DNA of 64,000 bases from IMG/VR virus record IMGVR_UViG_3300022868_000018. One strand, given 5' to 3'. Positions 36,236 to 57,830 of this stretch are shown piece by piece. The position numbers and the translations under genes are program-made. The DNA is from an uncultured virus (IMG/VR IMGVR_UViG_3300022868_000018). Lineage: Duplodnaviria > Heunggongvirae > Uroviricota > Caudoviricetes. The notes beneath the pieces are model-generated. The model was not told where the DNA came from, made no database searches, and worked only from the letters and a program-made list of their open reading frames with translations. Within the stretch, counting starts at the first letter, position 1; each line of letters opens with the position of its first letter.

Positions 36236-36406
36236 GAGGCCTCCGTGTTGGCTCTCTCATTGGCGCCTGCTTGTTTCTCCGCAATACTGAGCAAGTAGCA
36301 CTAAATCGCAGCCAACGCTGCATTCTCGCCCAATGACCTTCGGGAGCAGTAATCCAGAAGCCGCCCACAAATGAAAAGGGACCTATATACAACGTCACCC
36401 TAACGC

Positions 36407-36913
36407 TCAACCAAAAAAGCCGTTGTTGATCTGCTTCTGAAATTCGCTCATGTCCCAAACGGCGATGAGGGCGGCAACGGGGTCGGCTTGACGCTTCAAC
36501 CATTCCATCGCCGCAGGCTTGTATCCCCCACCATCCAACAGAACTACCGTGGTTATGCCTGCCTTCATAATGTTGAAAAGTAGGAATGGGTACTTCTCAT
36601 CAACCGAACCGCTACGTTGCTGCCACTTGCACTCAATGACAAGGCCATCGGCGAATAAATGCTCGTTCACAACGAAGAAATCGCACCTCCGGTCTGTGTC
36701 GTAGATGGTGGTCCCAACCTTCAGTTGTTTGATGTACTGCTTCCCGCCCAGGATACCGATGTTCGCGAATGCCAGCGCCTTGTTGCCTGAGAACTCGATA
36801 TAGCCCTTACTCACCAGAGCGTTTTCGACGAACTCCTCAAGCTGGTTACCCGTCTTATTGGCTTGCTGCCCGCTATTTGTAGTTGCGGATGATGAGTTCT
36901 GTCTCTTTGCCAC
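36407..36913 (-). CDS. PD-(D/E)XK nuclease, putative restriction endonuclease
   Basis: GNQLE...RCDFF...IECKWQ...GSVDEK; overlaps the MTase gene. Confidence 0.8.
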   Translation of the reverse strand: MAKRQNSSSATTNSGQQANKTGNQLEEFVENALVSKGYIEFSGNKALAFANIGILGGKQYIKQLKVGTTIYDTDRRCDFFVVNEHLFADGLVIECKWQQRSGSVDEKYPFLLFNIMKAGITTVVLLDGGGYKPAAMEWLKRQADPVAALIAVWDMSEFQKQINNGFFG

Positions 36914-37757
36914 GCTGGTCTCCCTTGCAGGACACGGACCGGGATGCCTGCACCTCTTCTATGTGGAACTCGCGGTAGAGCGAGCGCACAAAGGCATTAT
37001 TGGAGTTGGAAATCATGAAGTAGGCACCGGCCTTCTTCAACCCGCTGCAGAAATTAGCAAGTTCTTGATGATCGGTGTCCCCGAAACGACTGCTGTCGTA
37101 GCCGTCATAGGTCCGATGATAGGGCGGGTCAAGATAGTAGAAGCCGCCCTCCTCGAGTGGCACTTGGAGGAATGGGTGTTGCTTGAGCGTCGCGGACTGT
37201 AATGCCTGTGAGACTTGCCGAAGGTTTGCCTCGTCCAATATGGTTGGGTTGGTATAGCTTCCTATAGGGACGTTGAAGAGGCCACTCTTGTTGACGCGGT
37301 ACAGACCGTTGAAGCATGTCTTGTTGAGGTAGATGAAGAGTGCCGCCAACTTCGTCCCGTCTGTCTCACGGCCAAACTCCTTCCGCGCATTCAGGAAATA
37401 GGGCTTGTTGTGGCTGGCCGCGTGGCGCTCCAACTCAGCAATCAGCGCATCGACATCATCGCGCACCGCCTGGAATGTCAAAACCAGAGGCAGATTCACG
37501 TCCGACAAATAGGCGATCTGGGGCTGCACAGCGAAGAAGAGAGCGCCGCCTCCGATGAATGGCTCATGATAGGTAGTGTAGGAAGCTGGCAGCCTCGCCA
37601 ACAGTTCGGGCAGAATTGATCGCTTGCCTCCAACCCACTTGACGAACGGACGAGCAACAACTTCTTGTAGGGCGGGCCTGTTCTCGTCGGCTATCACCGC
37701 CAGGACACTATCGAGGTCTCCAGCGAGCGGCTTCATCACTTTCTGTGGTCGGGGCAT
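36873..37757 (-). CDS. Dam/D12-class N6-adenine DNA methyltransferase
   Basis: KWVGGK, EPFIGGGA, FNGLYRVNKSGLFNVP, YLDPPY. Confidence 0.95.
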   Translation of the reverse strand: MPRPQKVMKPLAGDLDSVLAVIADENRPALQEVVARPFVKWVGGKRSILPELLARLPASYTTYHEPFIGGGALFFAVQPQIAYLSDVNLPLVLTFQAVRDDVDALIAELERHAASHNKPYFLNARKEFGRETDGTKLAALFIYLNKTCFNGLYRVNKSGLFNVPIGSYTNPTILDEANLRQVSQALQSATLKQHPFLQVPLEEGGFYYLDPPYHRTYDGYDSSRFGDTDHQELANFCSGLKKAGAYFMISNSNNAFVRSLYREFHIEEVQASRSVSCKGDQRGKETELIIRNYK

Positions 37758-38674
37758 GCCGTCAACTCCTTGTAAGCCAGCCAGTTTGTATTCGCTACTC
37801 TGTCCAGTATACCTGCAAACGTCTCGCCAAAATTGGCGTTGCTTGTGTTGAGGCGATAGGTGAACTCGTCGAGATATCGCTGTAGGTGTTTCTCGCTCAT
37901 CCAGTGATAGATACCGATGTAACCACGCTTGAACAGAGCCCAGAAGCTCTCAATGCTGTTCGTGTGAATGAGCCCGTCTCGGACATACTCACCTATCTTG
38001 TGCTGCACGGTCTCGTGCCCGAAGAAACGCCCCAGTCGGCTGTAAGAAGCGAACTCATCGGTGTAAAGCTTGGTGCCGGGTTGGACCTGTGTCACGACAT
38101 GTTGCTCGATGGTGCGCATCCCCGTGTTGGCAACCGCCGTGGCCCGCACATCGCCCTCCCGCTGAACCAGACCGAACACGGGGGCCTTGCCCACGGCCCC
38201 GCGCCCAATGATTCTCTCGCGGCGTTGGCGAGCATGCATGTTCTTGGCCTTACCACCAATGTAGCACTCGTCGATTTCTACGGTGCCGAACAATTGACCA
38301 CCATTCTGCTTCATTGCCTCGCGGAGCCTATGGTCCATGAACCATGCCGTCTTCTGGGTGACCCCCACCTGCTTTGCCAGTTGCACCGAAGAGATGCCCT
38401 TGCGGCAGGTCGTGAGCAAGTAGATTGCCAAGAACCACTTGCGGAGCGAGACCTTGCTCTCGCCAAAGACGGTCTTGGTCTTGATGGTGAAGTCGCGCCG
38501 ACACCCTGCACACCGGAACCGCTTGCCGTCTTTGAAGCGGTAGATTGCGGTGTGTCCGCAGTGGGGGCAGTACTCCCCGTTGCGGAACCGGATGCCCTCG
38601 AAATACTCGCGGCAGGCCTCTTCGTCGGGAAACCTGTCGTTGAGGCCCGCAATACTTTCGATGCTCTTGCTCAT
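37736..38674 (-). CDS. IS1595-family (ISXO2-like) transposase
   Basis: CPHC/CAGC zinc ribbon, QKTAWFM, VEIDECYIGG, YTDE, HTNSIESFWALFKRG, YLDEF. Confidence 0.95.
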   Translation of the reverse strand: MSKSIESIAGLNDRFPDEEACREYFEGIRFRNGEYCPHCGHTAIYRFKDGKRFRCAGCRRDFTIKTKTVFGESKVSLRKWFLAIYLLTTCRKGISSVQLAKQVGVTQKTAWFMDHRLREAMKQNGGQLFGTVEIDECYIGGKAKNMHARQRRERIIGRGAVGKAPVFGLVQREGDVRATAVANTGMRTIEQHVVTQVQPGTKLYTDEFASYSRLGRFFGHETVQHKIGEYVRDGLIHTNSIESFWALFKRGYIGIYHWMSEKHLQRYLDEFTYRLNTSNANFGETFAGILDRVANTNWLAYKELTACPDHRK

Positions 38675-38840
38675 ATTCAGTCGTCTCCCATCTCCTACTA
38701 TGACCCCATTATAGTGGATCACATTAGGGTTGTCAAGTGCTATAATCAAATAGGTTCCCCGCTGCAGTTGGTGTAGGTGATATGGGCCTCCACGGCGAAT
38801 GGGATACAGCCAGCCAACATCAGCACCAGGGAGGCCCACT

Positions 38841-39164
38841 ATGTTCAAAAGCAAGTTCATCCAAGCCATTCACGAGAAGATAAAACTCAGGATCACATTC
38901 TTCTCAAGCAAAGACGGCCAATACATCACCCGTGTATGCGCGCCAATGGACTATGCCCCAGGCCGCAACATACACGACCGCGACAAACGCTATTGGGTGT
39001 GGGATTATGACAGCGATACAGGTAGGCATACATTGCCCCTCAAAGCAGAACGGATCAAAACAATGGTCGTGCTTGAGGATCATTTCGATCCCGACGAGTT
39101 CGTCACGTGGTCAACCCACACCAAGCCCTGGGCTGTTAGCCGAGACTGGGGACACCATAGTTGA
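38841..39164 (+). CDS. WYL-like small protein
   Basis: AIHEKIKLRITF...TRVCAP...YWVWD...ERI pattern; AGGGAGG SD. Confidence 0.55.
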   Translation: MFKSKFIQAIHEKIKLRITFFSSKDGQYITRVCAPMDYAPGRNIHDRDKRYWVWDYDSDTGRHTLPLKAERIKTMVVLEDHFDPDEFVTWSTHTKPWAVSRDWGHHS

Positions 39165-39367
39165 AGTAGGCCCACCAGCTTGACTGCGCTTGCTTCGTCC
39201 ACCATAGCAACGTACTCATCTTCGTCGGGGTTTGGACCCGCGAAGCTGATACCATATTCTTCTTGCCCCTCCTCATTCTCGATTTCTACTGCCAATATTC
39301 CACACGGGCAGTAGTGGGATGGGTGTGCAACTGCATTGCCCGACGTTGTCTTTGTGCTCGTGCTCAT
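39080..39367 (-). CDS. Phage-type hypothetical protein (DUF3310-like start; homologue of 62033-62242)
   Basis: NAVAHPSHY; GISFAGP...DEASAVKLV. Confidence 0.5.
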   Translation of the reverse strand: MSTSTKTTSGNAVAHPSHYCPCGILAVEIENEEGQEEYGISFAGPNPDEDEYVAMVDEASAVKLVGLLQLWCPQSRLTAQGLVWVDHVTNSSGSK

Positions 39368-39432
39368 GTTGCCAACCTCGCTTTCTCGCTCCACATTACA
39401 GGGCGGGGTGATTATGTATATAGGTCCCTTTC

Positions 39433-39822
39433 TTATTTTATGCCCCGATGCACTTTCAGCAATGTCTCCGTCAGCGACTGTATCGTGATGTTCTCTGCGG
39501 TGCTATAGTTGGCCCGCGAAATCTCTCCGCCATCAGCGCCGAGTTGATCTGCAGCGCGCTCGTGTACGCGAGATACCTCATCAAGCACCAGATGAAGCAA
39601 TTCGTGGATGACCGTGTTTTCGGGATCGACTTGGCCGGCGGCAACCATGATCTTAGCTGCCCGAGCATTCTTCGTTGTGTAGCAGAGGCCATAACACTCA
39701 AGCTGATGGTCCACCTTTTCAGCCGCAATCGCGACGACCTCGATGTCCCAATCGTCGAGCCTCAAACGGTGCTGCCATTCGGCCGCGAGCTTCTCAACCT
39801 GGCGTGTGGTCATTCGTTGCAT
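39433..39822 (-). CDS. HExxH zinc metallopeptidase-like protein
   Basis: WQHRLRLDDWDI...TVIHELLHL. Confidence 0.7.
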   Translation of the reverse strand: MQRMTTRQVEKLAAEWQHRLRLDDWDIEVVAIAAEKVDHQLECYGLCYTTKNARAAKIMVAAGQVDPENTVIHELLHLVLDEVSRVHERAADQLGADGGEISRANYSTAENITIQSLTETLLKVHRGIK

Positions 39823-40121
39823 CCTCCTTGGTCGGCCTCGTTATCAAGCTCCATCGTCCAGTCCGCGACTTCATATTCCTTGCCGCCGATGCTCAGACAC
39901 TTCTTCCCCTGCTCTTCGGCGACTTTCTTCATGTAGGCCTTCTGAAACTCCGGCGACCGGAACACACTTCCGGGATCAACGGCGAACTGAGAAAGCATTT
40001 TCACAAATGCGCCGATGGAATCATACGCATTGCTGTAGTTGTCGAGCGCCTTCCCGATGTCGCGCACCTCCTGCTGGAGTTCCTCCTGCGTCCGGTTCGG
40101 TAGGAAGTTTGGAGTGGTCAT
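39810..40121 (-). CDS. Hypothetical protein
   Basis: Packed ORF with SD. Confidence 0.55.
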   Translation of the reverse strand: MTTPNFLPNRTQEELQQEVRDIGKALDNYSNAYDSIGAFVKMLSQFAVDPGSVFRSPEFQKAYMKKVAEEQGKKCLSIGGKEYEVADWTMELDNEADQGGCNE

Positions 40122-40277
40122 TGCCTGCTTCCTCACTCGTAGATGACGTTACCCGCGTACCAGTATTCGCAATATCCCATTTGCGCAACGTAGAATGAAC
40201 CGCCCCAACGCTTTCAGCCCCCGCGCCTTCACGGGCTTATCTTCCTGCTCGCTCCATAAAGTCACAGCAACGCCTCC

Positions 40278-40424
40278 TTAGTCGTAGATGAAGCCATCCA
40301 CGTACCAGCATCCCAGCACCGCCAGCGCATAGACCAGCGAGGCGAAGATCGCCACCGCGAAGAACAACTTCGTGCTCACCAGAAACAATGCCCACATGAC
40401 CGTCAACACGGTGCGGCGCTTCAT
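40278..40424 (-). CDS. Small membrane protein
   Basis: MKRRTVLTVMWALFLV...; ATGA overlap. Confidence 0.5.
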   Translation of the reverse strand: MKRRTVLTVMWALFLVSTKLFFAVAIFASLVYALAVLGCWYVDGFIYD

Positions 40425-40672
40425 TGGGGGGCCTCCAAGCTCTCCCCGCAGTATGAACAGAATTTGTGCGCGGCGGGTATCGGCGCACGCCATACATCAA
40501 GGTCAGTGCAGGGCGGCAGCTTTCGGGCGCCGCTGTCTGCGATGTTGCTGTTGTACATCTCCGTATAGTTCTGCGCTGCGCCCAAATCCTCAAACATGCG
40601 CATCGTCCAGCCAACATCTGCGCTGTAATGACACCGCCCGCATTTGCACATACGATCAACCGTTACCCTCAT
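40421..40672 (-). CDS. Zinc-ribbon hypothetical protein
   Basis: CKCGRC and FCSYCG. Confidence 0.55.
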   Translation of the reverse strand: MRVTVDRMCKCGRCHYSADVGWTMRMFEDLGAAQNYTEMYNSNIADSGARKLPPCTDLDVWRAPIPAAHKFCSYCGESLEAPQ

Positions 40673-40674
40673 CG

Positions 40675-41202
40675 TTAGCCCTCCTCAGTAGTGACCTGCT
40701 TCTCTTCATCCGCCTCCGCCTTCAGCACCCGCCGGTACGCCCGACCGAACTCCGCCTCCCGGCTGATACCTACCAGCCGCAGGCTGAACGCACGAAGACT
40801 AGAAAGAAAACCAGCAACATCATCCTGCACAGCTATGCGCACCTCGGGATCACGCCACAGCAGCTCCACCTCGTCCCGCGCCCGCCCCAGGTCTACCGCC
40901 GCCAGTGCTGCCACCGCTTCTCTCCGCTCCCGCACTACCCCGTAGTCACCCTTCCGTCCTGTCAGCACCAGCAGCGGCTCACCGTCCCGCACCAGCCGCG
41001 CTACACTCTCCGCCACCAACCCCCGGTCGCCTTCCAGATACCACTTCACATCACCATTGCCCTTGTCCGGCCCCGTCAGCGGCTCCACGTACACGAAGAG
41101 TGACGCCATGCGCTCCGGCACCTCCGTCGGCTCCGCGTGGGCTGTGCGCTCCCGGGCGCGTATGCGCTCCGCTATGTCAGTCCCCTGCGTCTCGTTGGTC
41201 AT
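40675..41202 (-). CDS. Hypothetical protein
   Basis: AAGGAG SD before MTNETQG. Confidence 0.6.
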   Translation of the reverse strand: MTNETQGTDIAERIRARERTAHAEPTEVPERMASLFVYVEPLTGPDKGNGDVKWYLEGDRGLVAESVARLVRDGEPLLVLTGRKGDYGVVRERREAVAALAAVDLGRARDEVELLWRDPEVRIAVQDDVAGFLSSLRAFSLRLVGISREAEFGRAYRRVLKAEADEEKQVTTEEG

Positions 41203-41225
41203 CCGGCTCTCCTTCTCATCAGCAG

Positions 41226-41564
41226 TCAATGTCGCAACGCGCCTCCCATCCTCCGGCAGAACTCCCACCGCGCGTCCATGCCGCCCCTACTCCATACCCG
41301 CCGCGCTTCATCCGCACCTTTGCCATCCCACGTCATTGCCACCTCTATCATCTGCGTAAGCAGCCCTGCGTCCGTGAACTTCTCGCCGCCCTGCGTCGCG
41401 CGATCGAAAATCACCTGCGCGCCTTCCTCGAACGTCATCTCAGGATCCTCCGGATACTTCATTCCAACGCTCCGCTTCATGTCCGACAGGCGCGGCCCGC
41501 CTTTCGCCGGTGTTCTCCGATAGTGGTCAGTCATCATCCTGCTCCGCGTCCCGCTCCGCATCAC
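41226..41564 (-). CDS. Hypothetical protein (start uncertain)
   Basis: ORF fills the gap between same-strand genes. Confidence 0.5.
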   Translation of the reverse strand: MMRSGTRSRMMTDHYRRTPAKGGPRLSDMKRSVGMKYPEDPEMTFEEGAQVIFDRATQGGEKFTDAGLLTQMIEVAMTWDGKGADEARRVWSRGGMDARWEFCRRMGGALRH

Positions 41565-42141
41565 TTGGCCGCGTTACCGCATCGGTCACTTCGTCGAAGT
41601 CTATACCATCCGTCGTCGACACCAGCTTGCCTGCGTCTGCGATTCGGCGCAGTACGTGCAGGACTCGCCCCCAGGAATCGCGATACGCATCACTTCTTCC
41701 TGTATCGTGCGCCGACTCATTTGGCGAGCCATCTGCCGCCCTGCGCGAACATTCATCTGCAAAGCGGTGCAGTCGTACCGCCAAAGCAGTCAGAAGTTCG
41801 ACTGTATCCTGCTGCGTCATGCCCTCCGCCGGGGCCGTGTCGCCCTGCGCCTCGTAGTCGGACATCCGGGGGATGAAGTCGGTTTTGACCGACCCGGACG
41901 AGCTTGTCTCCGACGATCCATCCGCCCGGCCAGCCGCCATGATTGCCGCCGCATCTTCGGCAGATATTTCTATCGCCGCCGACGCCCCATCATCCTGATC
42001 CCGCAGTATCCCCAGAACATCCAGCGCCGTGTCTAGCTGGTCCTGGCCGTAGTCGTGCTCACCGACCTGCATCACATTGCTCAAAAGTTCCAGCGCATCC
42101 TGCTTCAAGCTCGCCTCAGTCACCGTCGCCATCGTCATCAC
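41527..42141 (-). CDS. Acidic hypothetical protein
   Basis: GAGGAG SD; 204 aa. Confidence 0.6.
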   Translation of the reverse strand: MMTMATVTEASLKQDALELLSNVMQVGEHDYGQDQLDTALDVLGILRDQDDGASAAIEISAEDAAAIMAAGRADGSSETSSSGSVKTDFIPRMSDYEAQGDTAPAEGMTQQDTVELLTALAVRLHRFADECSRRAADGSPNESAHDTGRSDAYRDSWGRVLHVLRRIADAGKLVSTTDGIDFDEVTDAVTRPSDAERDAEQDDD

Positions 42142-42174
42142 GCTCCTCGTTGTCGCCTTCGTTACGCTGCAACG

Positions 42175-42300
42175 TCATCGCTTCTTCCTCCGTTTGCTCC
42201 CCTGCCGCGTACCCTTCGGCTTCTTGCAGCCGCCACGCCCCGTGTTGCCCGTCCCACCGCCACTACCGTCCTTCTTCGGCGTGTTCTTCCTCGCTGTCAT
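42175..42300 (-). CDS. 41-aa basic Gly-rich peptide (not in ORF track)
   Basis: MTARKNTPKKDGSGGGTGNTGRGGCKKPKGTRQGSKRRKKR. Confidence 0.5.
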   Translation of the reverse strand: MTARKNTPKKDGSGGGTGNTGRGGCKKPKGTRQGSKRRKKR

Positions 42301-42439
42301 CTTCGCCACCTGCATTTCCTGCTGCTGCATCTTCCTCCATCGCACGCTTACTCATACGCACCGTTGCGCCGCAGAAGCCACAGCGGACTATACTTTGCCG
42401 CAACCACGCACCACAGCCAATGCAGCGGATAAGAACCAT
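42263..42439 (-). CDS. 58-aa zinc-ribbon protein (not in ORF track)
   Basis: MVLIRCIGCG...VRCGFCG plus acidic tail; GAGGAG SD. Confidence 0.5.
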   Translation of the reverse strand: MVLIRCIGCGAWLRQSIVRCGFCGATVRMSKRAMEEDAAAGNAGGEDDSEEEHAEEGR

Positions 42440-42452
42440 GGTCAGTCACTCC

Positions 42453-42761
42453 TCACGACGTCACACTGTCGCTGCCAAACGCCGCCCCTGCATAAAACTG
42501 ATGGAGGGGGGCAGCATCAGGTGCCGGCTCGGTCTCACTCCGATCTGCCACCCACTCCGCCTCCGCGACCGCATCCGCCAAGAGCGCAAGGGCCGCGTCG
42601 AGCGTCGGTGCGCTTGCTTGTATCGCCGAGTCCTGAAAGTACGGTTTCCACATCCCATTGAGTGCCGACGCAGAAAAGCCGTTGCCAGCTTCTTCGACGA
42701 GCAGCTTGCAGCCATGGTCATCCAGTTTCTGGACTAGTGCCTCAAGCTCAGTGTTCGTCAT
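42453..42761 (-). CDS. Hypothetical protein
   Basis: Coupled ORF. Confidence 0.55.
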   Translation of the reverse strand: MTNTELEALVQKLDDHGCKLLVEEAGNGFSASALNGMWKPYFQDSAIQASAPTLDAALALLADAVAEAEWVADRSETEPAPDAAPLHQFYAGAAFGSDSVTS

Positions 42762-43164
42762 CAGGTTTGGCCTCCTCTGCCACATTGACCGTCCAGCGCT
42801 GCAGTTCCTTGCCGTGTTGGTATATCACAACCTCGCAGTCCTCGAAGAACTCGAACTGGAGTGTGGTCGGCAGCTTCAAGTTGATTGTCACTGCGCCTAG
42901 TGCGGCAAGATCGTCAGTCGCCATCTTCTCCACCGCCTCTTCATTCGTTATAGACTCGGTAGTTACGGCGCACGGGTCCATGCTTCGCCGCACCACTTCG
43001 CCGCACTTGCAGACCCACGCAGGCCCGTAGTCACTCAGCCCGTCTCCCCTCAGTTCCAGCGGCTCCCGGTCCCCCAACAGAGCCTGAGCCTCCGGCGGTG
43101 GGGGCGCCGCCCGTAGCCATTCGGACTTGTACGTCATGCGGCTATGGCATTTAGGACACTTCAT
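42748..43164 (-). CDS. Zinc-finger hypothetical protein
   Basis: MKCPKC...WVCKCG; GGAGG SD. Confidence 0.6.
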   Translation of the reverse strand: MKCPKCHSRMTYKSEWLRAAPPPPEAQALLGDREPLELRGDGLSDYGPAWVCKCGEVVRRSMDPCAVTTESITNEEAVEKMATDDLAALGAVTINLKLPTTLQFEFFEDCEVVIYQHGKELQRWTVNVAEEAKPDDEH

Positions 43165-43195
43165 TTTCCAGCCTCCATGTACTTCCTGTATCGGT

Positions 43196-43951
43196 CTACT
43201 CCTCGCTCGTTATCGACTCGGTCTCATCAACATCCATGCCTGCCGGCTCGTCACCATCACCCTCGCCACCATCCGTGTCCTTCCCCGCACGCAAACCAGC
43301 CTCGAACTTCCGCCGCATCCCAGGACCCAACACCTGGTCCATTGCCGCTAACATCTCACCCATCCACTTCGCACCCACATCCATCTTCGCCTCGTCCGCT
43401 ATTCGCAAACCTCCCAAAGCCTCTACCTGCTGCACCTGTATCTTCGCCGATACCTCGATCAGACGGGCCAACTCAGTCACCGTCCGAGGCCGCATACCGC
43501 CAACAGACACTTCCTTCCCGGCAGCGTCAAAAAGATGCGAGACCTCAGCCCCGTCCTTATTGTACAGCGCCCCCTCGTCCAACGCCGCCATTCCCAAACC
43601 CAGCAACTTCTGCGTCAGCCGCACCAAACCCTCACGTGCCTCTATCTCATCTACCGGACCTACCAAGCCCAACACACGGTCCAGGGGCGCCATGTCCCAC
43701 GTCGCGCGCATCTTCTCCCAGTCAATCCCGCCAGGCTGCTGCCGAAGACGCCACATCGCCACGATACCGTCAGTCAAACCCATCTTCTGCTCAATCTCGC
43801 CATCCGTAAAATCACCCGAGCAGAAATGGTAAAGAGCGCGCCGCTTCACGCCATCATCATACCGACGGCGAGGTGCCCTAGCATCCGTCGCACGCAACAC
43901 CACAGCCGTCTCATCACCATTCTCCACTGCCAAACCGCCTTCGTTAGCCAT
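43196..43951 (-). CDS. Putative terminase small subunit (N-terminal HTH)
   Basis: YDDGVKRRAL...EIEQKMGLTDGIVAMWR...W HTH, helical middle, first gene of the late block. Confidence 0.55.
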   Translation of the reverse strand: MANEGGLAVENGDETAVVLRATDARAPRRRYDDGVKRRALYHFCSGDFTDGEIEQKMGLTDGIVAMWRLRQQPGGIDWEKMRATWDMAPLDRVLGLVGPVDEIEAREGLVRLTQKLLGLGMAALDEGALYNKDGAEVSHLFDAAGKEVSVGGMRPRTVTELARLIEVSAKIQVQQVEALGGLRIADEAKMDVGAKWMGEMLAAMDQVLGPGMRRKFEAGLRAGKDTDGGEGDGDEPAGMDVDETESITSEE

Positions 43952-43961
43952 TGTGCCAACA

Positions 43962-45000: not shown

Positions 45001-45001
45001 G

Positions 45002-48404: not shown

Positions 48405-48616
48405 ATACCCCCTACCCCCAGGGGGTACCCCCCTAGCACGGGCGTTCGACGCACGGGCGTTCGAGGGGCAGCGGTCGAACCGCCGTTCGAGCCGCCCGCC
48501 GCCCGCCGCATGTGGGCGCATGTACGGGTGCACCTACACACCAGAGAATACCGGGTCCGAATGAGTCGTGTCCGAATGAGTACCGAATGAGAAAACAGGG
48601 AGGCGTACCGAATGAG
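48405..48616. repeat. Repeat cluster upstream of the parB-like gene
   Basis: GGGGGTACCCCC palindrome, GCACGGGCGTTCGA x2, CCGAATGAG x4. Confidence 0.7.
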
Positions 48617-49565
48617 TCAACTACTGACCATCCCCATCGAGCAGTTGGTGCCGAGGGAAGACCAGCCGCGACAGCACTTCGACGAGGACAAGACGGAGGC
48701 CCTCGCCCAGTCCATGCGTGAGCAGGGATTCATCGGACAGATTACGGTGCGGCCAGTGCCCGGCAACGGTCACTATGAGATACTGGCGGGGCACCGGCGG
48801 CGGAAGGCGGCGTTGCTTGCGGGTATCACGGAGATTCCGGCGGTCGTGGAGGACCTAGACGATCAGGCAGCGAGGGAATACGTCCTACTCGACAATTTGA
48901 ATAGGGAGGACTTCCTGCCCTGGGAGGAGGGGGCCGGTTTCGCGGAGTTGGTCGCCTGCGGCATATCGGTGGAGCAGGTAGCGTCGAAGGCGGGCATGGC
49001 GGCGGCGACTGTGCAGAGCCGGATCGCGATACATGAGACGGCGGGGCAGGCGGCGCGGCAGGCGTTTATCCGGGAGGACTTCGGCGTGCTGATCCTCGAC
49101 CTTGTTTCCGAATTGCCAGACCGTGACCTGGCACCTGTGCGGTGTCCGCAGTGTGGGCTCATTCACAGGGAGGGCGTGCAGACCTGTGTGGGCTGTCGAC
49201 TCGACTTGCGCGGGGAGCCGGTCATCCCGTGTGGGAATCCGCAGGCGGCGGCAGTGAAGCTGTGCCGGGGCCGGCTGTTGGCATCGGCAAAGGAGATCGT
49301 CCAGCAGGTGCAGGAGTCATACGGTCTGGCGGATGTCCCGGTACAGACAAGCCTGGGCTTCGATGACGTGCAGATAAGCGAGGAGGCCGTGAAGGTCAAG
49401 TCCGAGTTCGAGCGCAGGCTGGGTGACCTGAGCAAGTTTGAGGCCTGGGCAAGCAAGAACGCGGGGTTACTGGCGGAGTACAGCGGTAGCACACGGGCCG
49501 CGATAGGCGCGCAGTGTGCAGCAGGCGAAAACATCCTGAGACGGGTAAGGGAGGCGGTAGCATGA
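48612..49565 (+). CDS. parB: ParB/Spo0J-family protein with zinc-ribbon insert
   Basis: DQPRQHFD...LAQSMREQG...YEILAGHRRRKA...DNLNRED; CPQC/CVGC. Confidence 0.88.
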   Translation: MSQLLTIPIEQLVPREDQPRQHFDEDKTEALAQSMREQGFIGQITVRPVPGNGHYEILAGHRRRKAALLAGITEIPAVVEDLDDQAAREYVLLDNLNREDFLPWEEGAGFAELVACGISVEQVASKAGMAAATVQSRIAIHETAGQAARQAFIREDFGVLILDLVSELPDRDLAPVRCPQCGLIHREGVQTCVGCRLDLRGEPVIPCGNPQAAAVKLCRGRLLASAKEIVQQVQESYGLADVPVQTSLGFDDVQISEEAVKVKSEFERRLGDLSKFEAWASKNAGLLAEYSGSTRAAIGAQCAAGENILRRVREAVA

Positions 49566-50276: not shown

Positions 50277-50321
50277 CAGGCAGAGTAGTATCGGACATAT
50301 CACAGACAGGGAGGCAGTACG

Positions 50322-50612: not shown

Positions 50613-50776
50613 CGTATCCGAGGGGCGCGGCTCTAACGCGCGGGAGGCGGGACGATGACCATCGACTGGACGCTCGTTGAGCTCGTGCTGTACCTCATCG
50701 CCGTGGCGCTGTTCGGCGTCGTGGTGTTGATTGACGACCGGGAGCAGTACACTGAGGACGGAGAGGGCGATTCCGA

Positions 50777-50836
50777 ATGACTATGGGAGACCGGATCAAA
50801 GCAGCGCGGCTGGCCGCCGGAATGTCGCAGGCTGCT
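50777..50836 (+). pseudogene. Truncated Cro/CI (XRE) HTH remnant
   Basis: MGDRIKAARLAAGMSQAA, after which HTH similarity ends. Confidence 0.5.
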
Positions 50837-50983
50837 GGAACTCGCACGTCCGAGGGGCGTGGTCGCGGCCACCGAAGAGGAGTGCGATGCCGAATGAACA
50901 GCCTCATGGACGCGATAGTGGACGCGCTGACAGAAGTGCTGATGCAACTGCTCGGACTCGACACTGGAAAGAAAGGGCGATGA

Positions 50984-51277
50984 ATGATGACCGTACAAGA
51001 CGAAGTGCGGAGATTGCGCTTGGGCATTCTGAATGCGGATATGAGAACAAAACTGACTAACCCGCTCATCTATGCTCACCTAACTGAGTTCGTATTCGGT
51101 AACAGGAAGGGCGAGTGGTTGACGGTGGCACTACTCAGCAATCGGGTACTGCAGATAACCAGGGATGGCGTAACTACAACTGAACCGCCCTATGGTTCTG
51201 CCGCCGAGATGCTGGATGCAGCAAGCCACAAAGTTGCGCTCTGGCTGCGAAGTGGAGAGGAGGCCCCCGATGCCTAA
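50984..51277 (+). CDS. Hypothetical protein
   Basis: Overlaps recombinase start. Confidence 0.55.
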   Translation: MMTVQDEVRRLRLGILNADMRTKLTNPLIYAHLTEFVFGNRKGEWLTVALLSNRVLQITRDGVTTTEPPYGSAAEMLDAASHKVALWLRSGEEAPDA

Positions 51278-51947
51278 CCGACTACCCCGCGTCGTCACGC
51301 GGGAACAAGCAGCGGCGATGCTGGCAATCCCCAGCATCAAAAGCCCCACCGGCCTCCGCCAGCGCGTCGTCCTTGAAGTGCTCTACCGCGCAGGCCTCCG
51401 GGCAGCCGAAGTCACAGGCTTGAAAGCGGAGGATGTTCACATCAAAGAACTGCGGCTCGACATCAGGGGCAGCAAGCGGGCGCAGTCAAGGGCGGTACCC
51501 ATCGGGGCAGAACTCGCCGGTTGGTTGCAGTCCTGGGCGCTGATGCGCCCGCAGAAGTCGGAGTGGTTCTTCTCCGCATTCCGAAGCAAGGGCGGTGGGG
51601 GGCCAGGCAACCGGCTTCAGGAGAGTTGGCTGAGGCGAATGGTCGGTGGGATCGCGCAACAGGCAGGCATCGACCCGCTGCTTGTGTCGCCGCACGTCTT
51701 TCGGCACACCTACGCCACGGAGTTGCTGGAAGACGGGTTCACCATCTCCGAAATCCAGTTGCTGCTCGGGCATAGCAGCATCCGCACGACGGCCATCTAC
51801 CTGCACGTGAAGCTCAGTGAACTCGCGGAGAAGGTGGCGGCAAGGGACGCGGAGAGAGACGTGCTGGCCGAGGACGTGGCGGCGACGCTGAAAGGTCTCG
51901 ACCGTGATCAGTTGCAGGGCTTGAAGGAGGTCCTTGGCACTATCTGA
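51270..51947 (+). CDS. Tyrosine recombinase, catalytic domain only
   Basis: RLPRVVT, YRAGLRAAE, GSK, PHVFRHTYAT, LLGHSS, TTAIY. Confidence 0.92.
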   Translation: MPNRLPRVVTREQAAAMLAIPSIKSPTGLRQRVVLEVLYRAGLRAAEVTGLKAEDVHIKELRLDIRGSKRAQSRAVPIGAELAGWLQSWALMRPQKSEWFFSAFRSKGGGGPGNRLQESWLRRMVGGIAQQAGIDPLLVSPHVFRHTYATELLEDGFTISEIQLLLGHSSIRTTAIYLHVKLSELAEKVAARDAERDVLAEDVAATLKGLDRDQLQGLKEVLGTI

Positions 51948-51997
51948 GCAGCAGGACATCAAACATCCGACGGGCGCGAAAACGCGGGAGGAATGAC

Positions 51998-52261
51998 ATG
52001 ACGGGAGCGTCTGAGGAAGCAGGACTGTTGGCTGGTATCAAGCGACGAGCGCACATTGCGACACTGATACCCAAGCCGGATGTGGTTGCCAAGCTGATGG
52101 CATTGCAGAACAAGCTCACCAACGATGCGATAAAGTGCGTCCCGCATAGAGGCACCCTCGAAACCTGGAAGGCTCTCTTGACGGGGAAGAGGATGGGGTG
52201 CTTGCTTGCCGCTGACTACGTGGATGAACTGATAGCGGAAATCGAAGAGGGTGAAGCGTGA
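51998..52261 (+). CDS. Hypothetical protein
   Basis: GGGAGGA SD. Confidence 0.55.
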   Translation: MTGASEEAGLLAGIKRRAHIATLIPKPDVVAKLMALQNKLTNDAIKCVPHRGTLETWKALLTGKRMGCLLAADYVDELIAEIEEGEA

Positions 52262-52415
52262 TGGGATACCCACAGGATAGACGCTGCCCCTGCAAGCAAT
52301 GGTCGTGGGGCAAGCAGCGGGCGGCAACCCATTCCGAGGGCTACCTATGCCCGCCCCACCACTTGCTGCAGACAGGCGGCACGGGAACCGAACCTGAGAA
52401 TAAACGGGAGGAAGC

Positions 52416-52724
52416 ATGATGGCAGCAAAGATGAGTGCGTTTGTTATCAGTGAGCCAGATGCCATTCGGCGAATCGCCAAAACACTGACACGCGACGAGG
52501 CTGAAATTGTTGCGCGTGCCCGCGCCAGCGGAATCGTTTCGTCGGGTGGGTTTTTCCCTAACTTTCCTGGCATAACCCAGGCCATCGCCGGAACACTATC
52601 ACACGTAGAGGCCGAATTCATTGCGGAATACCGCGTTGAGGATGCCGAATTCGTGTGCCGTGTACTTCACGCAAAGCAGCAAGCGGAGAAAGAATTGGCG
52701 GCGCTTGAAGATGATGGTGAGTAG
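52416..52724 (+). CDS. Hypothetical protein
   Basis: GGGAGGA SD. Confidence 0.6.
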   Translation: MMAAKMSAFVISEPDAIRRIAKTLTRDEAEIVARARASGIVSSGGFFPNFPGITQAIAGTLSHVEAEFIAEYRVEDAEFVCRVLHAKQQAEKELAALEDDGE

Positions 52725-52770
52725 TATGCGCAGGAATCAGACAGGTGCGAAGAGCGCGGGAGGAAACAAA

Positions 52771-52977
52771 ATGACCATATATGAGCTCAGGGACCTGGCA
52801 AACGTATTCGTAGCAAAGGACAACGAGGATATGGAGGTGAAGCTCGTTCTCTGCCAGACGCACAACAACCTAGAGTACGAGGTCGGCGAAGTTGGTCTGG
52901 ATGAGAATGGCAACTTGCGGCTTGAGACTGGTGACCAAATTGGCTATGCCGGTGCCGACATCGTTGAACCGTGGTAG
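52771..52977 (+). CDS. Small acidic phage protein
   Basis: MTIYELRDL...DMEV pattern; GGGAGGA SD. Confidence 0.6.
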   Translation: MTIYELRDLANVFVAKDNEDMEVKLVLCQTHNNLEYEVGEVGLDENGNLRLETGDQIGYAGADIVEPW

Positions 52978-52988
52978 GACACAGCACG

Positions 52989-53020
52989 AAGCCCTCGGTG
53001 TCAATGCCGAGGGCTTTTCT
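52989..53020 (+). terminator. Intrinsic terminator at the convergence of two gene blocks
   Basis: AAGCCCTCGGT-GTCAAT-GCCGAGGGCTTTTCT. Confidence 0.8.
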
Positions 53021-53038
53021 GTGCCTGCTCGCCGACTG

Positions 53039-53236
53039 TCACACTGCCGGCTCGTCTCCTTGCTTCCCAGGCGGGCGCAGTTTGATGGCCTCGGCCCAAA
53101 GCTCACGCGCTATCGCCGCCCCGTCTGGATCACCCTCCGCGATGTACGCATCATTGAGCGTCCACAGGGCCATCGTTGCGTTTGCCAGCGGGCAACCACA
53201 CTGTTCTTCACCCCGAATGAGTCTTTGTGGTCTCAT
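53039..53236 (-). CDS. Small hypothetical protein
   Basis: AGGAGG SD. Confidence 0.5.
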   Translation of the reverse strand: MRPQRLIRGEEQCGCPLANATMALWTLNDAYIAEGDPDGAAIARELWAEAIKLRPPGKQGDEPAV

Positions 53237-54419
53237 GTTTGCTGCCTCCTTTCGTCGCTGTGCTTCCCGCGAATACCCCCAGGCAGCAGGGAACGCCCTT
53301 CTCGGCGCAACGAGCTATGATGTAAGCTTTGGGTAAGCGTGTCCAGATTACGCACGGTGGCTCAGGTTCGGTCCAAGTGCCAAAACCGTCCAGCCAAGTA
53401 CCCCATACCGCTACCATGCCACTGTATGACGCGGCTCCGTATGCCATCTTCGTCACGCTGCGGAACAGAACATCGTGCCCATCGGTATCCTGTAGCGTCA
53501 CCGTCGGCGGTTCTTCCGTCTTCTCCGGCGGGCACGGGACGCCACTCTCTTCACCATCGCACAAGCACTCTATCCATTCGGCTCGCGGGTCCTTGGTCAT
53601 ACATTCCGTGCGCCGCGCCAGGCACTTGAAGAGCAACCCGCACTCAACACACTGCAGCGTTGTCCATTTCTCGCTGAAGTTCGTGCCATCGCCGAACCAC
53701 TTGCCATTCTGCAACTCGCCACACCGGGGGCAATAGACCTCGGGCAGGTCGTCGCGTGATGCTACTGCGCGGCGGGCATCATCCAGTGCTTCCCTCGATT
53801 TCTCGGGGAGGCCATCTTTCCCACAGCACGGGACGCCAGTGGCGGCGCAGGCAGCGAGGGCTTTCTCCACAGGAAGCAGGATGCCCCAACCATCAGCGTG
53901 AGACTTTTTGTGGCGTCCATGCCAGAAGCCACCCATATACCGCCCAGAGCCCCATACCTGGCAAAACGTACCGCCAAGAAAGTAGCGCGGCTCTATGTGA
54001 GTGATATGCGAAAACTCCATCGGACAGTCCTTTGCGAATGTCGGCAACATCACCACCGGCGGCTCCGCCCCCTCGCAACTCCAGGTCGGGCCGAAGGCAT
54101 TCTCATCACGGGCAAGCAGGGTGATTTCGGCGATAGATTCGGACACACCAACCCAGTCCTCATCCAAGCTATTGTATTTGCCAATGACGCGGACGCCACG
54201 GAGGACCTTAGCCAGAGACGTGATTGCGCTGAACACATAGGGTTGACCCAATGTCACACCGTGCAGCGTCACCGTCGGCGGCTTGTCCTCGGCCAGTTCC
54301 CGCTTCGTCCGCTCAAGCCAGACCGTCAGCCTGTTTGCCAGTTCATCATCCCCACTGCACGAAATCGCTGCCCTCGCCTTCCGAACATCCTCCATCAACT
54401 CGTCTCCCAACTTGCCCAT
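53208..54419 (-). CDS. Protein with three repeats of a small FlbD-like domain and a zinc ribbon
   Basis: PPTVTL/PPVVML/PPTVTL starts; GVPCC twice; CPRC/CVEC. Confidence 0.6.
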   Translation of the reverse strand: MGKLGDELMEDVRKARAAISCSGDDELANRLTVWLERTKRELAEDKPPTVTLHGVTLGQPYVFSAITSLAKVLRGVRVIGKYNSLDEDWVGVSESIAEITLLARDENAFGPTWSCEGAEPPVVMLPTFAKDCPMEFSHITHIEPRYFLGGTFCQVWGSGRYMGGFWHGRHKKSHADGWGILLPVEKALAACAATGVPCCGKDGLPEKSREALDDARRAVASRDDLPEVYCPRCGELQNGKWFGDGTNFSEKWTTLQCVECGLLFKCLARRTECMTKDPRAEWIECLCDGEESGVPCPPEKTEEPPTVTLQDTDGHDVLFRSVTKMAYGAASYSGMVAVWGTWLDGFGTWTEPEPPCVIWTRLPKAYIIARCAEKGVPCCLGVFAGSTATKGGSKHETTKTHSG

Positions 54420-54421
54420 CG

Positions 54422-55045
54422 TTACTCATCTCCCGTCTCTGTAGTTGGCGGCTGTTCAGTCGCCGCCTTTCGCCCTTTCGCCTTCTCGACCAACCCGCCC
54501 CACGCCGCAGCCATGTCCCGTACCGCCGTATCGCAGCGCGGGCAGACCTGCCCGTACACCATCGCCCCGCAGTACGAGGGCGGCTCCCCTATCACCTGCA
54601 CGATACCCTCACACCGCTGCCCTATCGACGCATACAGGCGCACCAACATCAGCCCCGCCTCCGCATACTCAACAGACTCGTAACGACCGCGGAACGCTGT
54701 GACCAGCGTGTGCATCAGCAATCCAAGCCCGAACTCCACGACCTCGCCCTGCCGCACCCGCAACTGGAGCGCGGCATAGTCCTGCGACGACTTCCAATAG
54801 CACGCATGACAGAGGCACGTCCAGCCATCGCCGTTCGCGCTCGGCACCTCAAACTGCCATAACTCCTGCTGGCATCGGCTGCAGTCGGTATTCCGCAGAG
54901 CGGTTATCGTGTTCTTGTAGGTCTCGAAATCCGCCGTCCCAGCGGCATAGGCATCGGTCACGTCGCGCATGATTACGCCCGTCTCCGACTGGTGGTCATC
55001 CTTGCGCTCTACGAGTACGCCGCTCAGGTCAAGCATCGGTATCAT
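54422..55045 (-). CDS. Zinc-finger hypothetical protein
   Basis: CSRC, CLCHAC, CPRC. Confidence 0.6.
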   Translation of the reverse strand: MIPMLDLSGVLVERKDDHQSETGVIMRDVTDAYAAGTADFETYKNTITALRNTDCSRCQQELWQFEVPSANGDGWTCLCHACYWKSSQDYAALQLRVRQGEVVEFGLGLLMHTLVTAFRGRYESVEYAEAGLMLVRLYASIGQRCEGIVQVIGEPPSYCGAMVYGQVCPRCDTAVRDMAAAWGGLVEKAKGRKAATEQPPTTETGDE

Positions 55046-55080
55046 CCCCTTCCATTTGGGACCTATATACCTGACGCAAC

Positions 55081-55806
55081 CTAAAGCCGTTCGTGTTTGT
55101 CGTACAAGTTGCGGAGATCTTCAGGGGCGATTCGGAATTTGGTACCGTGGTTGCGAAGGGCCTTGCTGTTAGGCCGTGCCTCGCGCACATCGAAGTCTAT
55201 AGCGATCCTACCGTCTGTCAGGGCCTCGGCGAATTCTGAAAGGTGAATGGTTTCATATAGGTCGGCCCGGTCAAAACGCACCCTCCGCTCACGCCTAACG
55301 CCTTGCACGACGACCAGACGACGGAGCTTGCCGCCAGCGATGTTCAGGAGTGTGTCATGCGACCAGATAGGCACAGGGCCATTACCATTGAGGGGCCGAA
55401 CGATGATATTGCCTGCATCATCAAAGACCTTGAACCTGTCGGATGTTCCCTTGATGGTATGCCGGAAGCTCAACCGCCCATTGTCGTCCAGCCAGCCATA
55501 CTTACTGACCATGTAGCGCATGACGCGGGTACCGTCGTCACACTCCTTGTGGAACATGGTAATCAGGTGGGTCTGAGGAGAACACCACTTGACCTCCCAG
55601 CCGATGCAGTCGGGTATGTCCTTACCACCAGCCGTCAGGCCCAGCATGTCTTCAAGGAAATTGCCTGGACCTCCTGTGCCATTGTAGCGTGGCACACCGG
55701 GCGTCATGTCCAGCCAACCTATCTCAAGCAGGTTGCGAAGACGAGCCACCATCTCCCTCTTCGTCGTTGGTGGTTCAAGGGGCGGCACGAACGGTTGTGT
55801 GGTCAT
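55081..55806 (-). CDS. MvaI/BcnI-family restriction endonuclease
   Basis: GGPGNFLEDMLG...PDCIGWEVK...ITMF...RNHGTKFRI. Confidence 0.85.
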   Translation of the reverse strand: MTTQPFVPPLEPPTTKREMVARLRNLLEIGWLDMTPGVPRYNGTGGPGNFLEDMLGLTAGGKDIPDCIGWEVKWCSPQTHLITMFHKECDDGTRVMRYMVSKYGWLDDNGRLSFRHTIKGTSDRFKVFDDAGNIIVRPLNGNGPVPIWSHDTLLNIAGGKLRRLVVVQGVRRERRVRFDRADLYETIHLSEFAEALTDGRIAIDFDVREARPNSKALRNHGTKFRIAPEDLRNLYDKHERL

Positions 55807-56618
55807 TCCCTGAGCAGTCCCTTCGCAGCAAGTATGCGTTCCTTGGCAAGCTTGCCGTAGTCTGCCGAAACATCAATGCCTACCCACTCGCGGCCCAGGC
55901 TTTCAGCGGCTATCGCCGTAGAGCCGGAACCCATGAACGGGTCAAGCACGATCTGCGCGTTAGTTGCCTTGATACACCTTGCCGCCAGTTCCACAGGGAA
56001 TGGGGCTGGATGGGGGTTGTTGCTCTCTTGGGGTATGTGCCATACGTCACCGATTGCGTTTGCCTTCCGGGCCAACTTGAATTCAGGTTTGCAGATGATG
56101 TAAATGACTTCGTAAGTCGGCAGGAAGTATCCGGGATTGAAGTTTATGCCGCCATCGCGCTGCCAAATGATGATTTGACGGACAGGGAACCCATCAACGA
56201 TGTCGTGGCGATCCTGCAAGAGACCTCCCTGGACGCGCCACTTATGGTTGTAGAAGATAGCTCCGTCTTCGCGCAGCAAGCGTATCATTGCGGTTAGGCA
56301 CTGGCGCTGCCAGGCCACATACTCCGCATGAGGCATGGTGTCGTCATGGTCGGTATAACCATTGATGAGGGCAGCATTCTTCCACTTTCCGCCGCGCCCG
56401 TCTTTCATGCCGTTGCCGGTGCTATTCTTCAGGTTGTACGGAGGGGACGTTACAATGAGATCAATAGAACCGGCAGGCATCCGGTCCATTAGTTCAACGG
56501 AATCGCCACAATGAACCTTGCCGATCCACTTCTCCATCAACCCGCGAGGAACGCGACTGACGGCGGCGGTGAGAAGATCATCCATGCCCATCGAAATGCG
56601 CGTGGCCCTCTCACTCAT
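55803..56618 (-). CDS. Beta-class N4-cytosine/N6-adenine DNA methyltransferase
   Basis: TSPPYN precedes HPAPFP and VLDPFMGSGST. Confidence 0.93.
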   Translation of the reverse strand: MSERATRISMGMDDLLTAAVSRVPRGLMEKWIGKVHCGDSVELMDRMPAGSIDLIVTSPPYNLKNSTGNGMKDGRGGKWKNAALINGYTDHDDTMPHAEYVAWQRQCLTAMIRLLREDGAIFYNHKWRVQGGLLQDRHDIVDGFPVRQIIIWQRDGGINFNPGYFLPTYEVIYIICKPEFKLARKANAIGDVWHIPQESNNPHPAPFPVELAARCIKATNAQIVLDPFMGSGSTAIAAESLGREWVGIDVSADYGKLAKERILAAKGLLRE

Positions 56619-57526
56619 GCAATCAGCCCCTTATATGTCAGGCGAAGCCCTGAGGTGTTTTCGAGGAGAGTGTCAACCCGTTCGGTGCCGTCAAGGTCGT
56701 TCATGTTCCACCGTGCCTCAAACTCCGCGATGTAACGGTGAATATGCTTGGCGGTCATCTTGTGAAAGATACCATAGTGGCCACGCTTTAGCAAGGCCCA
56801 AAATGACTCAATGCCGTTCGTGTGGCAATCGCCGTTCACATACTCGCCGGCTGAGTGGTTGACGCTTTGATGATTGTACCCGTCCAGACCGAGGTAGCTG
56901 CTATGATCATCACTATACAGCGTGGAGTTCAGACTCACGTTCTCCCTGATAAACCTGTGGACCTCTTCTCGATTGGTCCTCCCAATCATCTCTGCGGCAA
57001 CACGGCCATCACGCTCACGCGCGCCCATGACGGTCAACTTGCCGACCGGACCCCGACCAGCATTCAGTTTCTTGCTGGCATGCTTGTTACCTTCCTTGCC
57101 GCCGATATAAGTCTCGTCAGCCTCTACTGTGCCGTCCATCGGGCCGCCGAGATCGCCTACGGCACCGGCTACTTCGCGAAGCCTGCCGAGCATGAACCAG
57201 GCCGTCTTCTGAGTGACGCCGATTTCGCGGGCGAGTTGCGTGGATGCGATACCCTTGCGGTTCATGGTGATAAGCCAAACCGCAGCGAACCATTTCCGCA
57301 AGGGCAGGCGGCTCTCCTCAAAGATCGTGCCCTTGCGGACGCTGAACTGCTTATTACAGTCGGCACACTTGTAGACATGTCGGCGCTCAATCCGATAGAA
57401 CTTTCGGGCACTACCGCAGAGGGGACAGATAATGCCCTTCGGCCAGCGCAGTTTCTCCAGGTGCAAGATGCAAGTCTTTTCGTTGGGAAAGGCTTCCATC
57501 AGGGAGAATAGGCTATCGTATCTCAT
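56615..57526 (-). CDS. IS1595-family transposase
   Basis: CPLC/CADC, QKTAWFM, VEADETYIGG, YSDD, HTNGIESFWALLKRG. Confidence 0.95.
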   Translation of the reverse strand: MRYDSLFSLMEAFPNEKTCILHLEKLRWPKGIICPLCGSARKFYRIERRHVYKCADCNKQFSVRKGTIFEESRLPLRKWFAAVWLITMNRKGIASTQLAREIGVTQKTAWFMLGRLREVAGAVGDLGGPMDGTVEADETYIGGKEGNKHASKKLNAGRGPVGKLTVMGARERDGRVAAEMIGRTNREEVHRFIRENVSLNSTLYSDDHSSYLGLDGYNHQSVNHSAGEYVNGDCHTNGIESFWALLKRGHYGIFHKMTAKHIHRYIAEFEARWNMNDLDGTERVDTLLENTSGLRLTYKGLIA

Positions 57527-57830
57527 GGTTGCGGCCCCTTTCGTATCGTACGCAACCATTGTAGCATGTTCCACTGGTTGTGTCAAGTATATATTTCCCT
57601 TCCATTTCCGCTGCTTCCGCTGCTTCCGCTGCTCTCGCCACACATTCCGGGCAGAAATCGTCCACGTCGGCGTGACAACTTTCCACCCAGAGTTCCGACC
57701 GCCAACCATGCTGCTCCAGCCACGCATCAATCGCATCGTTGTCCCGGACGGTCTCCGGCATCTCCACTTCCCGCCCGCACTCGTCGCAGGTGACGCGCAA
57801 GGCACCGTCATGCGTCGGGGTTACGGTCAT
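57513..57830 (-). CDS. Zinc-finger protein whose C-terminus is replaced by IS sequence
   Basis: CDEC...GW...DFCPEC; reads through the TSD into the TIR. Confidence 0.6.
   Translation of the reverse strand: MTVTPTHDGALRVTCDECGREVEMPETVRDNDAIDAWLEQHGWRSELWVESCHADVDDFCPECVARAAEAAEAAEMEGKYILDTTSGTCYNGCVRYERGRNHEIR

Follow-up and report, generated by a model that had tools for sequence, protein, structure and literature searches.

Two IS1595-family transporter insertion sequences with restriction-modification cargo in one phage genome, and a promoter GATC that may place one of them under the control of its own Dam-type methylase

The window analysed here, a stretch of 64,000 nucleotides from an uncultured virus of the Caudoviricetes (IMG/VR record IMGVR_UViG_3300022868_000018), carries two insertion sequences (ISs) of the IS1595 family, which we call E1 and E2. 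The 13-base end motif GGGACCTATATAC starts at 36378 and 55058, as an earlier note made from the sequence alone had reported, and with up to two mismatches it occurs at exactly four sites in the 64 kb (36378, 39428, 55058 and 57599), which are the four element ends. Both elements hold passenger genes within the terminal inverted repeats (TIRs) of a single IS, which is what defines an IS1595 transporter IS (tIS). In each of them the genes of a transposase (tnp), a methyltransferase (MTase, M) and a nuclease (R) follow one another with overlaps up to the TIR, just as the note had described, and the catalytic residues are present in all six proteins. The transposases, T1 and T2, are related, as had been proposed: they score 205 and 190 bits against NF033547 (cut-off 75) and are 43% identical to each other. 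The two elements may belong to the ISNwi1 subgroup (Siguier et al. 2009). The features of E1 are as follows.

36378..39428, minus strand: E1, IS1595-family tIS of 3051 bp, without target duplication
36378..36401: right (distal) TIR of E1 and putative breakpoint of a 296-bp adjacent deletion
36407..36913, minus strand: E1 nuclease, PF20472 (PDDEXK_11), 168 aa, with D78 and E94-x-K96 conserved
36873..37757, minus strand: M1, the E1 MTase, an alpha-class Dam/DpnM-like adenine MTase (D12 family) of 294 aa with DPPY and FxGxG intact
37668..37757, minus strand: N-terminal ~30 residues of M1, homologous to the free peptide of MTase-less relatives
37736..38674, minus strand: T1, with zinc ribbon and DDE domain; D136/D207/E243 are invariant in alignment A5
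38708..38736, minus strand: sigma-70-type consensus promoter for tnp-M-R, 12/12, with a 17-nt spacer
38717..38720: GATC in the spacer of this promoter
38718..38746, plus strand: overlapping divergent promoter-like site toward the WYL-like gene, 10/12, with extended -10; its -35 overlaps the GATC
38841..39164, plus strand: passenger of the upstream slot, a stand-alone WYL-like protein of 107 aa
39080..39367, minus strand: 95-codon open reading frame (ORF) in the upstream slot, for which no homologue was found and which may not be a gene
39405..39428: left TIR of E1

The two TIRs of E1 match at 20 of 24 bases, and only 2 of the 8 flanking bases agree. The alpha-class Dam-like MTase and short PD-(D/E)XK nuclease that had been read from the sequence are indeed present. 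As in DpnII/MboI-type GATC systems, M1 is closest to DpnM (best structure, E 7e-53); unlike in those systems, the nuclease is a small PF20472 protein, which scores 15.8 bits against the DpnII family PF04556, under the cut-off of 23. Its model (pLDDT 85.7) has a predicted restriction-endonuclease fold with BstEII as the best match (Z 10.6, rmsd 3.6, 134 aligned); a sequence search and Foldseek against solved structures gave nothing significant, and PADLOC contains no model for this protein. As in a type II restriction-modification system, the MTase and nuclease genes are adjacent, retain their catalytic motifs and are conserved as a pair. On the basis of these sequences, the very small PF20472 proteins are candidates for a family of restriction enzymes that act on GATC. 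Plasmid searches returned one distant match for each of the E1 and E2 nucleases. The claim that both elements share the same layout holds for the order transposase, MTase, nuclease, but E1 extends to the TIR at 39428, with an upstream region of 750 bp that contains the divergent WYL-like gene.

The promoter GATC of E1 is shared with its relatives according to whether they carry a Dam-type methylase. We scored the promoters of the T1 clade (at least 52% identity, 102 distinct rows), each of which starts with a conserved -35 motif. TGATC stands at one spacer position in all 44 scorable elements with Dam (hereafter Dam elements), and GATC is found in none of the 32 scorable Dam-less ones; another 8 rows were classified without a scorable promoter, and 18 were unclassifiable (2 with GATC, 11 without, 5 unscorable). 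When only elements found through their transposase are counted, the values are 23/23 and 0/32. The word TGATC is invariant in 43 promoters, where the adjoining spacer bases are 30-80% conserved. The transposase genes contain fewer GATC sites than expected (57 vs 133), and the phage is depleted in them as well (0.49). No second conserved GATC or internal methylation site for the nuclease was found, no other GATC in the element exceeding 15/29, and a GATC near the ends, as in IS10, lies within 70 bp at only 2/34 left and 3/33 right ends. In an IQ-TREE phylogeny of 72 ingroup rows, Dam and the promoter GATC need five changes each, on the same branches. In L056, L105, L230 and L232, four distant Dam elements, a GATC lies within the promoter or close to it.

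As the slot gene next to the promoter, 17 of 19 Dam elements have a divergent one, and 17 of 23 Dam-less elements a co-oriented one. A divergent promoter common to the lineage was considered and rejected, its -10 core being kept at the same register in only 10 of 43 Dam relatives. In many Dam-less relatives (e.g. L282, L290 and L294), a palindrome on the TIR-internal ACCCT motif occupies the spacer where Dam elements have GATC; the palindrome and the GATC are possibly two alternative control modes.

The account that we consider probable, with some reserve, is that the Dam-type methylase encoded by E1 methylates the promoter GATC and thereby represses a single tnp-M-R transcript. According to this proposal, the three genes would be transcribed together from the consensus promoter, M1, whose nearest structure is DpnM, would methylate GATC, and the nuclease would cut unmethylated GATC. 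In a naive host or after fresh replication, the site would be un- or hemimethylated, which would allow a burst of transposase and methylase; the nuclease, encoded by the last gene, which is overlapped and has a GTG start, would lag behind. Once the cell is methylated, the promoter would be repressed, as IS10 is under host Dam, and the M-R pair would then keep the element by addiction and shield the lysogen and the phage DNA. The methylase itself may have been captured by in-frame fusion to a small peptide gene, whose translational coupling it would have inherited.

The peptide in question is encoded by most methylase-less elements; it has 40-55 residues with a short helix-like motif and a basic tail, and its start overlaps or shortly follows the transposase stop. 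A profile of 34 free peptides gives 35 bits with the N-terminus of M1, while 256 shuffles reach at most 6.3, and 16-51 bits with the N-termini of other Dam proteins of the T1 clade, with the single exception of L158, which has another ORF in between. The same profile also matches the beta methylase of the element L129 (21 bits) and three transposase-less copies. A second profile, from seven proteins of another clade, gives 11-20 bits on the Dam proteins of that region and not on the E1 protein. The type of peptide follows the transposase clade, which suggests capture by in-frame fusion, and the fused peptide possibly contacts the transposase. Two examples of the free peptide were scanned and belong to no Pfam family; we consider this peptide behind IS1595 transposases a candidate transposase regulator.

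The transposase relatives indicate how such cargo is inherited. The earlier note had proposed one lineage of defence-carrying IS1595 transposons with an exchangeable cargo slot that colonises phages, to be checked by a transposase tree. Our FastTree phylogeny of 188 transposases places T2 among nine members of one clade, all with a beta methylase, and T1 in another clade, with clades free of restriction-modification (R-M) genes between them. Among 154 distinct elements found through the transposase, 27 carry Dam, 7 a beta methylase, 8 other R-M-like genes and 92 no recognised R-M cargo (a class based on 148 scanned passengers, not on all passengers), and 20 are too short; R-M cargo is present in 42 of the 134 classifiable elements. 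R-M genes are common in this part of the IS1595 family and belong to several unrelated types (Dam with PDDEXK_11, beta methylase with MvaI/BcnI, type IIG, type III and EcoRI-like). Among the viral relatives of T2 with at least 66% identity, taken from the best 80 of 236 transposase matches, 7/7 have the methylase and 6/7 the nuclease, and a transposase or a fragment of one adjoins in 11 of the 12 loci found through the E2 nuclease. Of the best 80 of 363 genome matches to the E1 nuclease, 73 have a Dam-like gene as neighbour, and in 29 a transposase match lies within 2.5 kb; they span at least eight phylum-level labels, which are those of bins and may be misassigned.

Within the T1 clade, transposase distance correlates with the distances of the methylase and of the nuclease over 35 complete elements with Dam (Spearman 0.60 and 0.35; 0/2000 permutations as high), and the nearest neighbour is shared with the transposase for 17/35 methylases and 16/35 nucleases, from which it follows that the pair is inherited with the transposase. 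Cargo swaps do occur, rarely: L129 carries E2-type cargo with a transposase 47-48% identical to T1 and T2. The fast-changing slot is upstream of the transposase and not at the M-R position, the region between left TIR and transposase in Dam elements ranging from about 100 to more than 1000 bases with unrelated genes. In L236, the closest relative of E1 (78%), the upstream slot is empty and the target duplication intact. Target duplications of 8 bp are present in 39 of 53 complete T1-clade elements, and these 39 target sites are 82% AT, compared with flanks of 49% GC; AT-rich targeting together with selection on the phage is sufficient to explain insertions near gene ends.

Colonisation of phages as a specialisation is not supported by the relatives of E1. 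Nineteen genome-derived ones had scanned neighbours, which are of housekeeping type in 15 and island type in 2, with no match in 2; a phage structural neighbour was seen in 0/19, with NCBIfam being weak for phage genes. T1 matches occur in only 4 of 50,697 GenBank phage records, all below 40% identity.

Dam-nuclease pairs without a transposase (L163, L178, L182, L183, L184 and L186) are nested within the IS clade and are R-M systems that remain after transposase loss; the IS peptide is still borne by the transposase-less L163 and L182, and by L166, which has kept one TIR.

Several observations weigh against control of E1 by its own methylase. The sequence is as compatible with activation as with repression. 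Among solved structures the nuclease is without a close relative, and its DpnII match is weak (E 0.009). Just two of the five paired Dam/GATC changes lie on well-supported (starred) branches, a number too small for a sign test. In a second group of Dam-carrying IS1595 elements (L043, L096, L100, L197, L199 and L207), the 140 bp that precede the transposase contain no GATC, and the site is therefore not required for carrying Dam. In the E2 branch, a conserved cognate methylation site was sought in nine E2-type promoters and none was seen, and the N-terminus of the E2 MTase is unmatched by three peptide profiles; its extension has only a visual likeness to the peptide, all members of the E2 clade in the comparison having the MTase.

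The effect of methylation may be the reverse of what we propose: it could raise tnp-M-R transcription, or shift the polymerase between this promoter and that of the divergent passenger, as in CfrBI, with full nuclease only once the genome is methylated. We think this unlikely, although a loop that only represses would yield most nuclease while the host is unprotected, and both the overlap of the GATC with the divergent -35 in the window and the predominantly divergent slot genes of Dam elements speak for a switch. The divergent -10 core is, however, kept in few Dam elements, many of those with an empty slot still retain the GATC, and the IS precedents compared are all repressive. A somewhat weaker candidate, to which we give little credence, treats the GATC as a protein operator, bound by the methylase (perhaps together with the transposase through the fused peptide), which would block the polymerase whatever the methyl mark. 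The ACCCT palindrome in the same spacer of many Dam-less relatives suggests that the spacer is always an operator, and the type of fused peptide goes with the clade of the transposase; against this, conservation is confined to the likely methylation target and extends no further.

That one clade carries the GATC simply as an inherited relic, with E1 and E2 as ordinary tISs with passive R-M cargo, would agree with the small number of well-supported independent changes and with the Dam-carrying IS1595 elements that lack the site. We consider it very improbable, given that the GATC is invariant across transposases 54-100% identical to T1 while the adjacent bases differ and there is selection against GATC in other places, and that it was lost in all five Dam-less lineages of the best tree. 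The single phage-specialised lineage with a freely exchangeable defence slot, as proposed in the earlier note, is scarcely credible in our judgement. The variety of R-M types, the swap in L129, the seven E2-type elements in viral contigs and the presence of two such elements in one phage are in its favour, and to that extent the association with defence cargo stands; single descent and free exchange are not supported, since T1 and T2 belong to separate clades, the cargo follows the transposase, 92 of the 134 classifiable relatives show no R-M cargo, and the relatives of E1 are mostly chromosomal.

Beyond self-methylation of the E1 promoter, we put forward, as a tentative idea that we would not yet favour, that there is a widespread transposon class with its own epigenetic clock. 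In it, a methylase tethered to the transposase by a co-evolving IS peptide would mark the promoter and confine jumping to a naive genome or newly replicated phage DNA until the R-M system is established, and the peptide gene would be a general site of cargo capture. If the E1 promoter is indeed self-methylated, one element of 2.4-3 kb would unite two known control modes, the gating of transposition by Dam and the control of R-M systems through self-methylation. Such elements would also offer a route for the spread of R-M systems across many bacterial phyla and prophages, followed by settling without the transposase, a step suggested by the transposase-less copies nested within the IS clade.

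Passenger-bearing IS1595 elements and transposon-like R-M units with 8-bp duplications have already been published. E1 and E2 share with the IS1595 tISs MTnSag1/tISSag10 and tISCpe8 (PMC5704250) the DDE transposase, TIRs of ~24 bp, 8-bp duplications (in E2 and in most complete T1-clade elements), AT-rich targets and passengers. Unlike in those tISs, the passenger is not a resistance gene but an M-R pair that overlaps tnp; in E1 the pair is fused to the IS peptide, passengers lie on both sides, and the promoter bears the likely target site of the cargo. The transposon-like R-M units of X. oryzae and N. gonorrhoeae likewise consist of R-M genes enclosed by inverted repeats and show target duplications of 8 bp (Furuta, Abe and Kobayashi 2010, PMC2853133, which cites Siguier 2009 among reports of IS-flanked R-M or M genes); in those units the transposase is absent or probably inactive, whereas in E1 and E2 it is intact and co-evolves with the cargo, which is of other R-M families. 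Dam controls IS10, IS50, IS903 and IS3 (PMC4659465, PMC9296519), and E1 resembles these ISs in having a GATC within the transposase promoter; the difference is that they depend on host Dam, while the methylase of E1 is encoded on the element, downstream of the same promoter, and its effect here is predicted. CfrBI has a self-methylated promoter (bioRxiv 10.64898/2025.12.04.692298). E1 is like it in having no controller protein and one cognate site in the promoter region, overlapping the -35 of the divergent promoter-like site in the window, but M and R are divergent in CfrBI, whereas tnp, M and R of E1 follow one another in tandem and a variable passenger takes the divergent position. In the literature covered, where subscription papers are thinly represented, we found nothing on a self-methylated IS1595 promoter, the peptide fusion, PF20472 or anti-phage defence cargo of IS1595.

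The second element, E2, has the following features.

55050..55057: copy 1 of the E2 target duplication, TTCCATTT, immediately ahead of the next phage gene, at its likely ribosome-binding site
55058..57599, minus strand: E2, IS1595-family tIS of 2542 bp, defined by end motif and TIRs
55058..55081: right TIR of E2
55081..55806, minus strand: E2 nuclease, MvaI/BcnI family, 241 aa
55803..56618, minus strand: E2 MTase, beta-class, with SPPY motif; nearest structure, the N4-cytosine MTase 8S9M/8S9N
56615..57526, minus strand: T2, the E2 transposase
57558..57586, minus strand: promoter-like site of E2, with its -35 within the left TIR
57576..57599: left TIR of E2
57600..57607: copy 2 of the E2 target duplication

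The TIRs of E2 match at 20 of 24 bases, the 8-bp target duplication is perfect, and neighbouring genes among tnp, MTase and nuclease overlap by 4 bases each. The cargo is again as had been described, a beta-class (N6_N4) MTase and an MvaI/BcnI nuclease above the cut-off of PF15515. As in MvaI/BcnI systems, this nuclease is closest to R.MvaI, the best structure with a full-length match, and R.BcnI; unlike in those systems, the nearest match of the MTase is a beta-class N4C enzyme. Of 64 palindromes, CCWGG shows the strongest depletion in eight E2-type elements (15 vs 33 expected; 0.45), an indirect sign, and the pair probably acts on CCWGG with N4-methylcytosine, as an ordinary m4C/CCWGG-type pair. 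The insertion replaced the six terminal codons of a small phage gene, and through the duplication the start region of the gene that follows is intact. The view that both elements spare the essential genes thus needs qualification: none is cut, but E2 took these six codons, and the flank of E1 in the window lacks 296 bp. The phage gene broken by E2 (57513-57830, minus strand) reads 28 codons into the element and ends just within the transposase start, and the phage transcript could drive T2 translation through this read-in. Related phages were scanned for the empty site of E2 and none was found.

The right flank of E1 exists in two forms, which coexist in the population. In another assembly of the same phage (locus L328), 296 extra bases follow directly after the right TIR. 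They hold a single small ORF and the first part of a 65-codon ORF that precedes the terminase, and the window form lacks this segment. In public contigs of four runs, which may be sources of this assembly, the depth of the short flank is 54.3, 17.7, 24.9 and 11.2 and that of the long flank 8.2, 3.6, 4.4 and none, both forms being present in 3/4; a further run not so marked, X11, also contains both. The short-flank joint lies exactly at the TIR, with no shared bases. The simplest reading is that the 296-bp loss is an adjacent deletion made by the transposase, and E1 would then be active now or recently. Recombination between two nearby insertions could also have produced the two flanks, since neither of them restores a target duplication. 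The related phages L330 and L331 (71-74% terminase) are without E1 and do not show its empty site, because the genes before their terminase differ. A single contig of run X9 (depth 13) connects the promoter region of E1 with sequence close to its right end (window 36460-38716), and represents either a related element or an E1 derivative with a deletion.

The window covers the first 64 kb of a contig that is 68,944 bases long and has a terminal repeat of 127 bases, and the phage genome is therefore taken as circular. A scan of 90 ORFs found terminase, portal, major head protein, tape measure protein, a DnaC-like loader, RecT, RusA, endolysin, a ParB-like protein and a tyrosine integrase, the last two encoded opposite to the main direction of transcription.

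48612-49565, plus strand: ParB-like gene
51192-51947, plus strand: tyrosine integrase

A phage with an integrase is probably temperate, and integration and partition functions are possibly both present. Given the integrase, ordinary transposition into a prophage explains both insertions, and both transposons likely entered the phage while it was a prophage. All 24 runs listed as holding the E1 region carry the label salt lake metagenome.

Other passengers recur among the relatives. A small Cys/His-rich repeat protein is a divergent passenger of Dam elements (L160:3674-4042, L161:3571-3990, L167:3617-3913, L168:102-434, L239:154-450, L240:84-476, L244:3555-3860, L158:3725-3895 and L241:712-882), without Pfam or PADLOC match in the seven of nine scanned. 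In a Dam-less member of the E1 clade, the upstream slot contains a nuclease of the EcoRI family together with an N6 methylase (L002:4381-5698), and proteasome-beta (Ntn-hydrolase-like) upstream passengers recur in Dam-less relatives (L003:5122-5973, L269:848-1723, L281:2801-3883 and L283:3029-3916), with similar N-termini in L273, L277, L293, L302 and L311. Distant IS1595 elements (L069-L081, L089, L045, L083, L061, L062 and L091) carry Bro-N/KilA-N or P63C proteins, two of them with BstA-like matches, as well as helicase-methyltransferase fusions and type IIG and III R-M systems. Finally, several small deletion variants segregate in the population at 41168-41855 of the window and have no relation to the IS ends.

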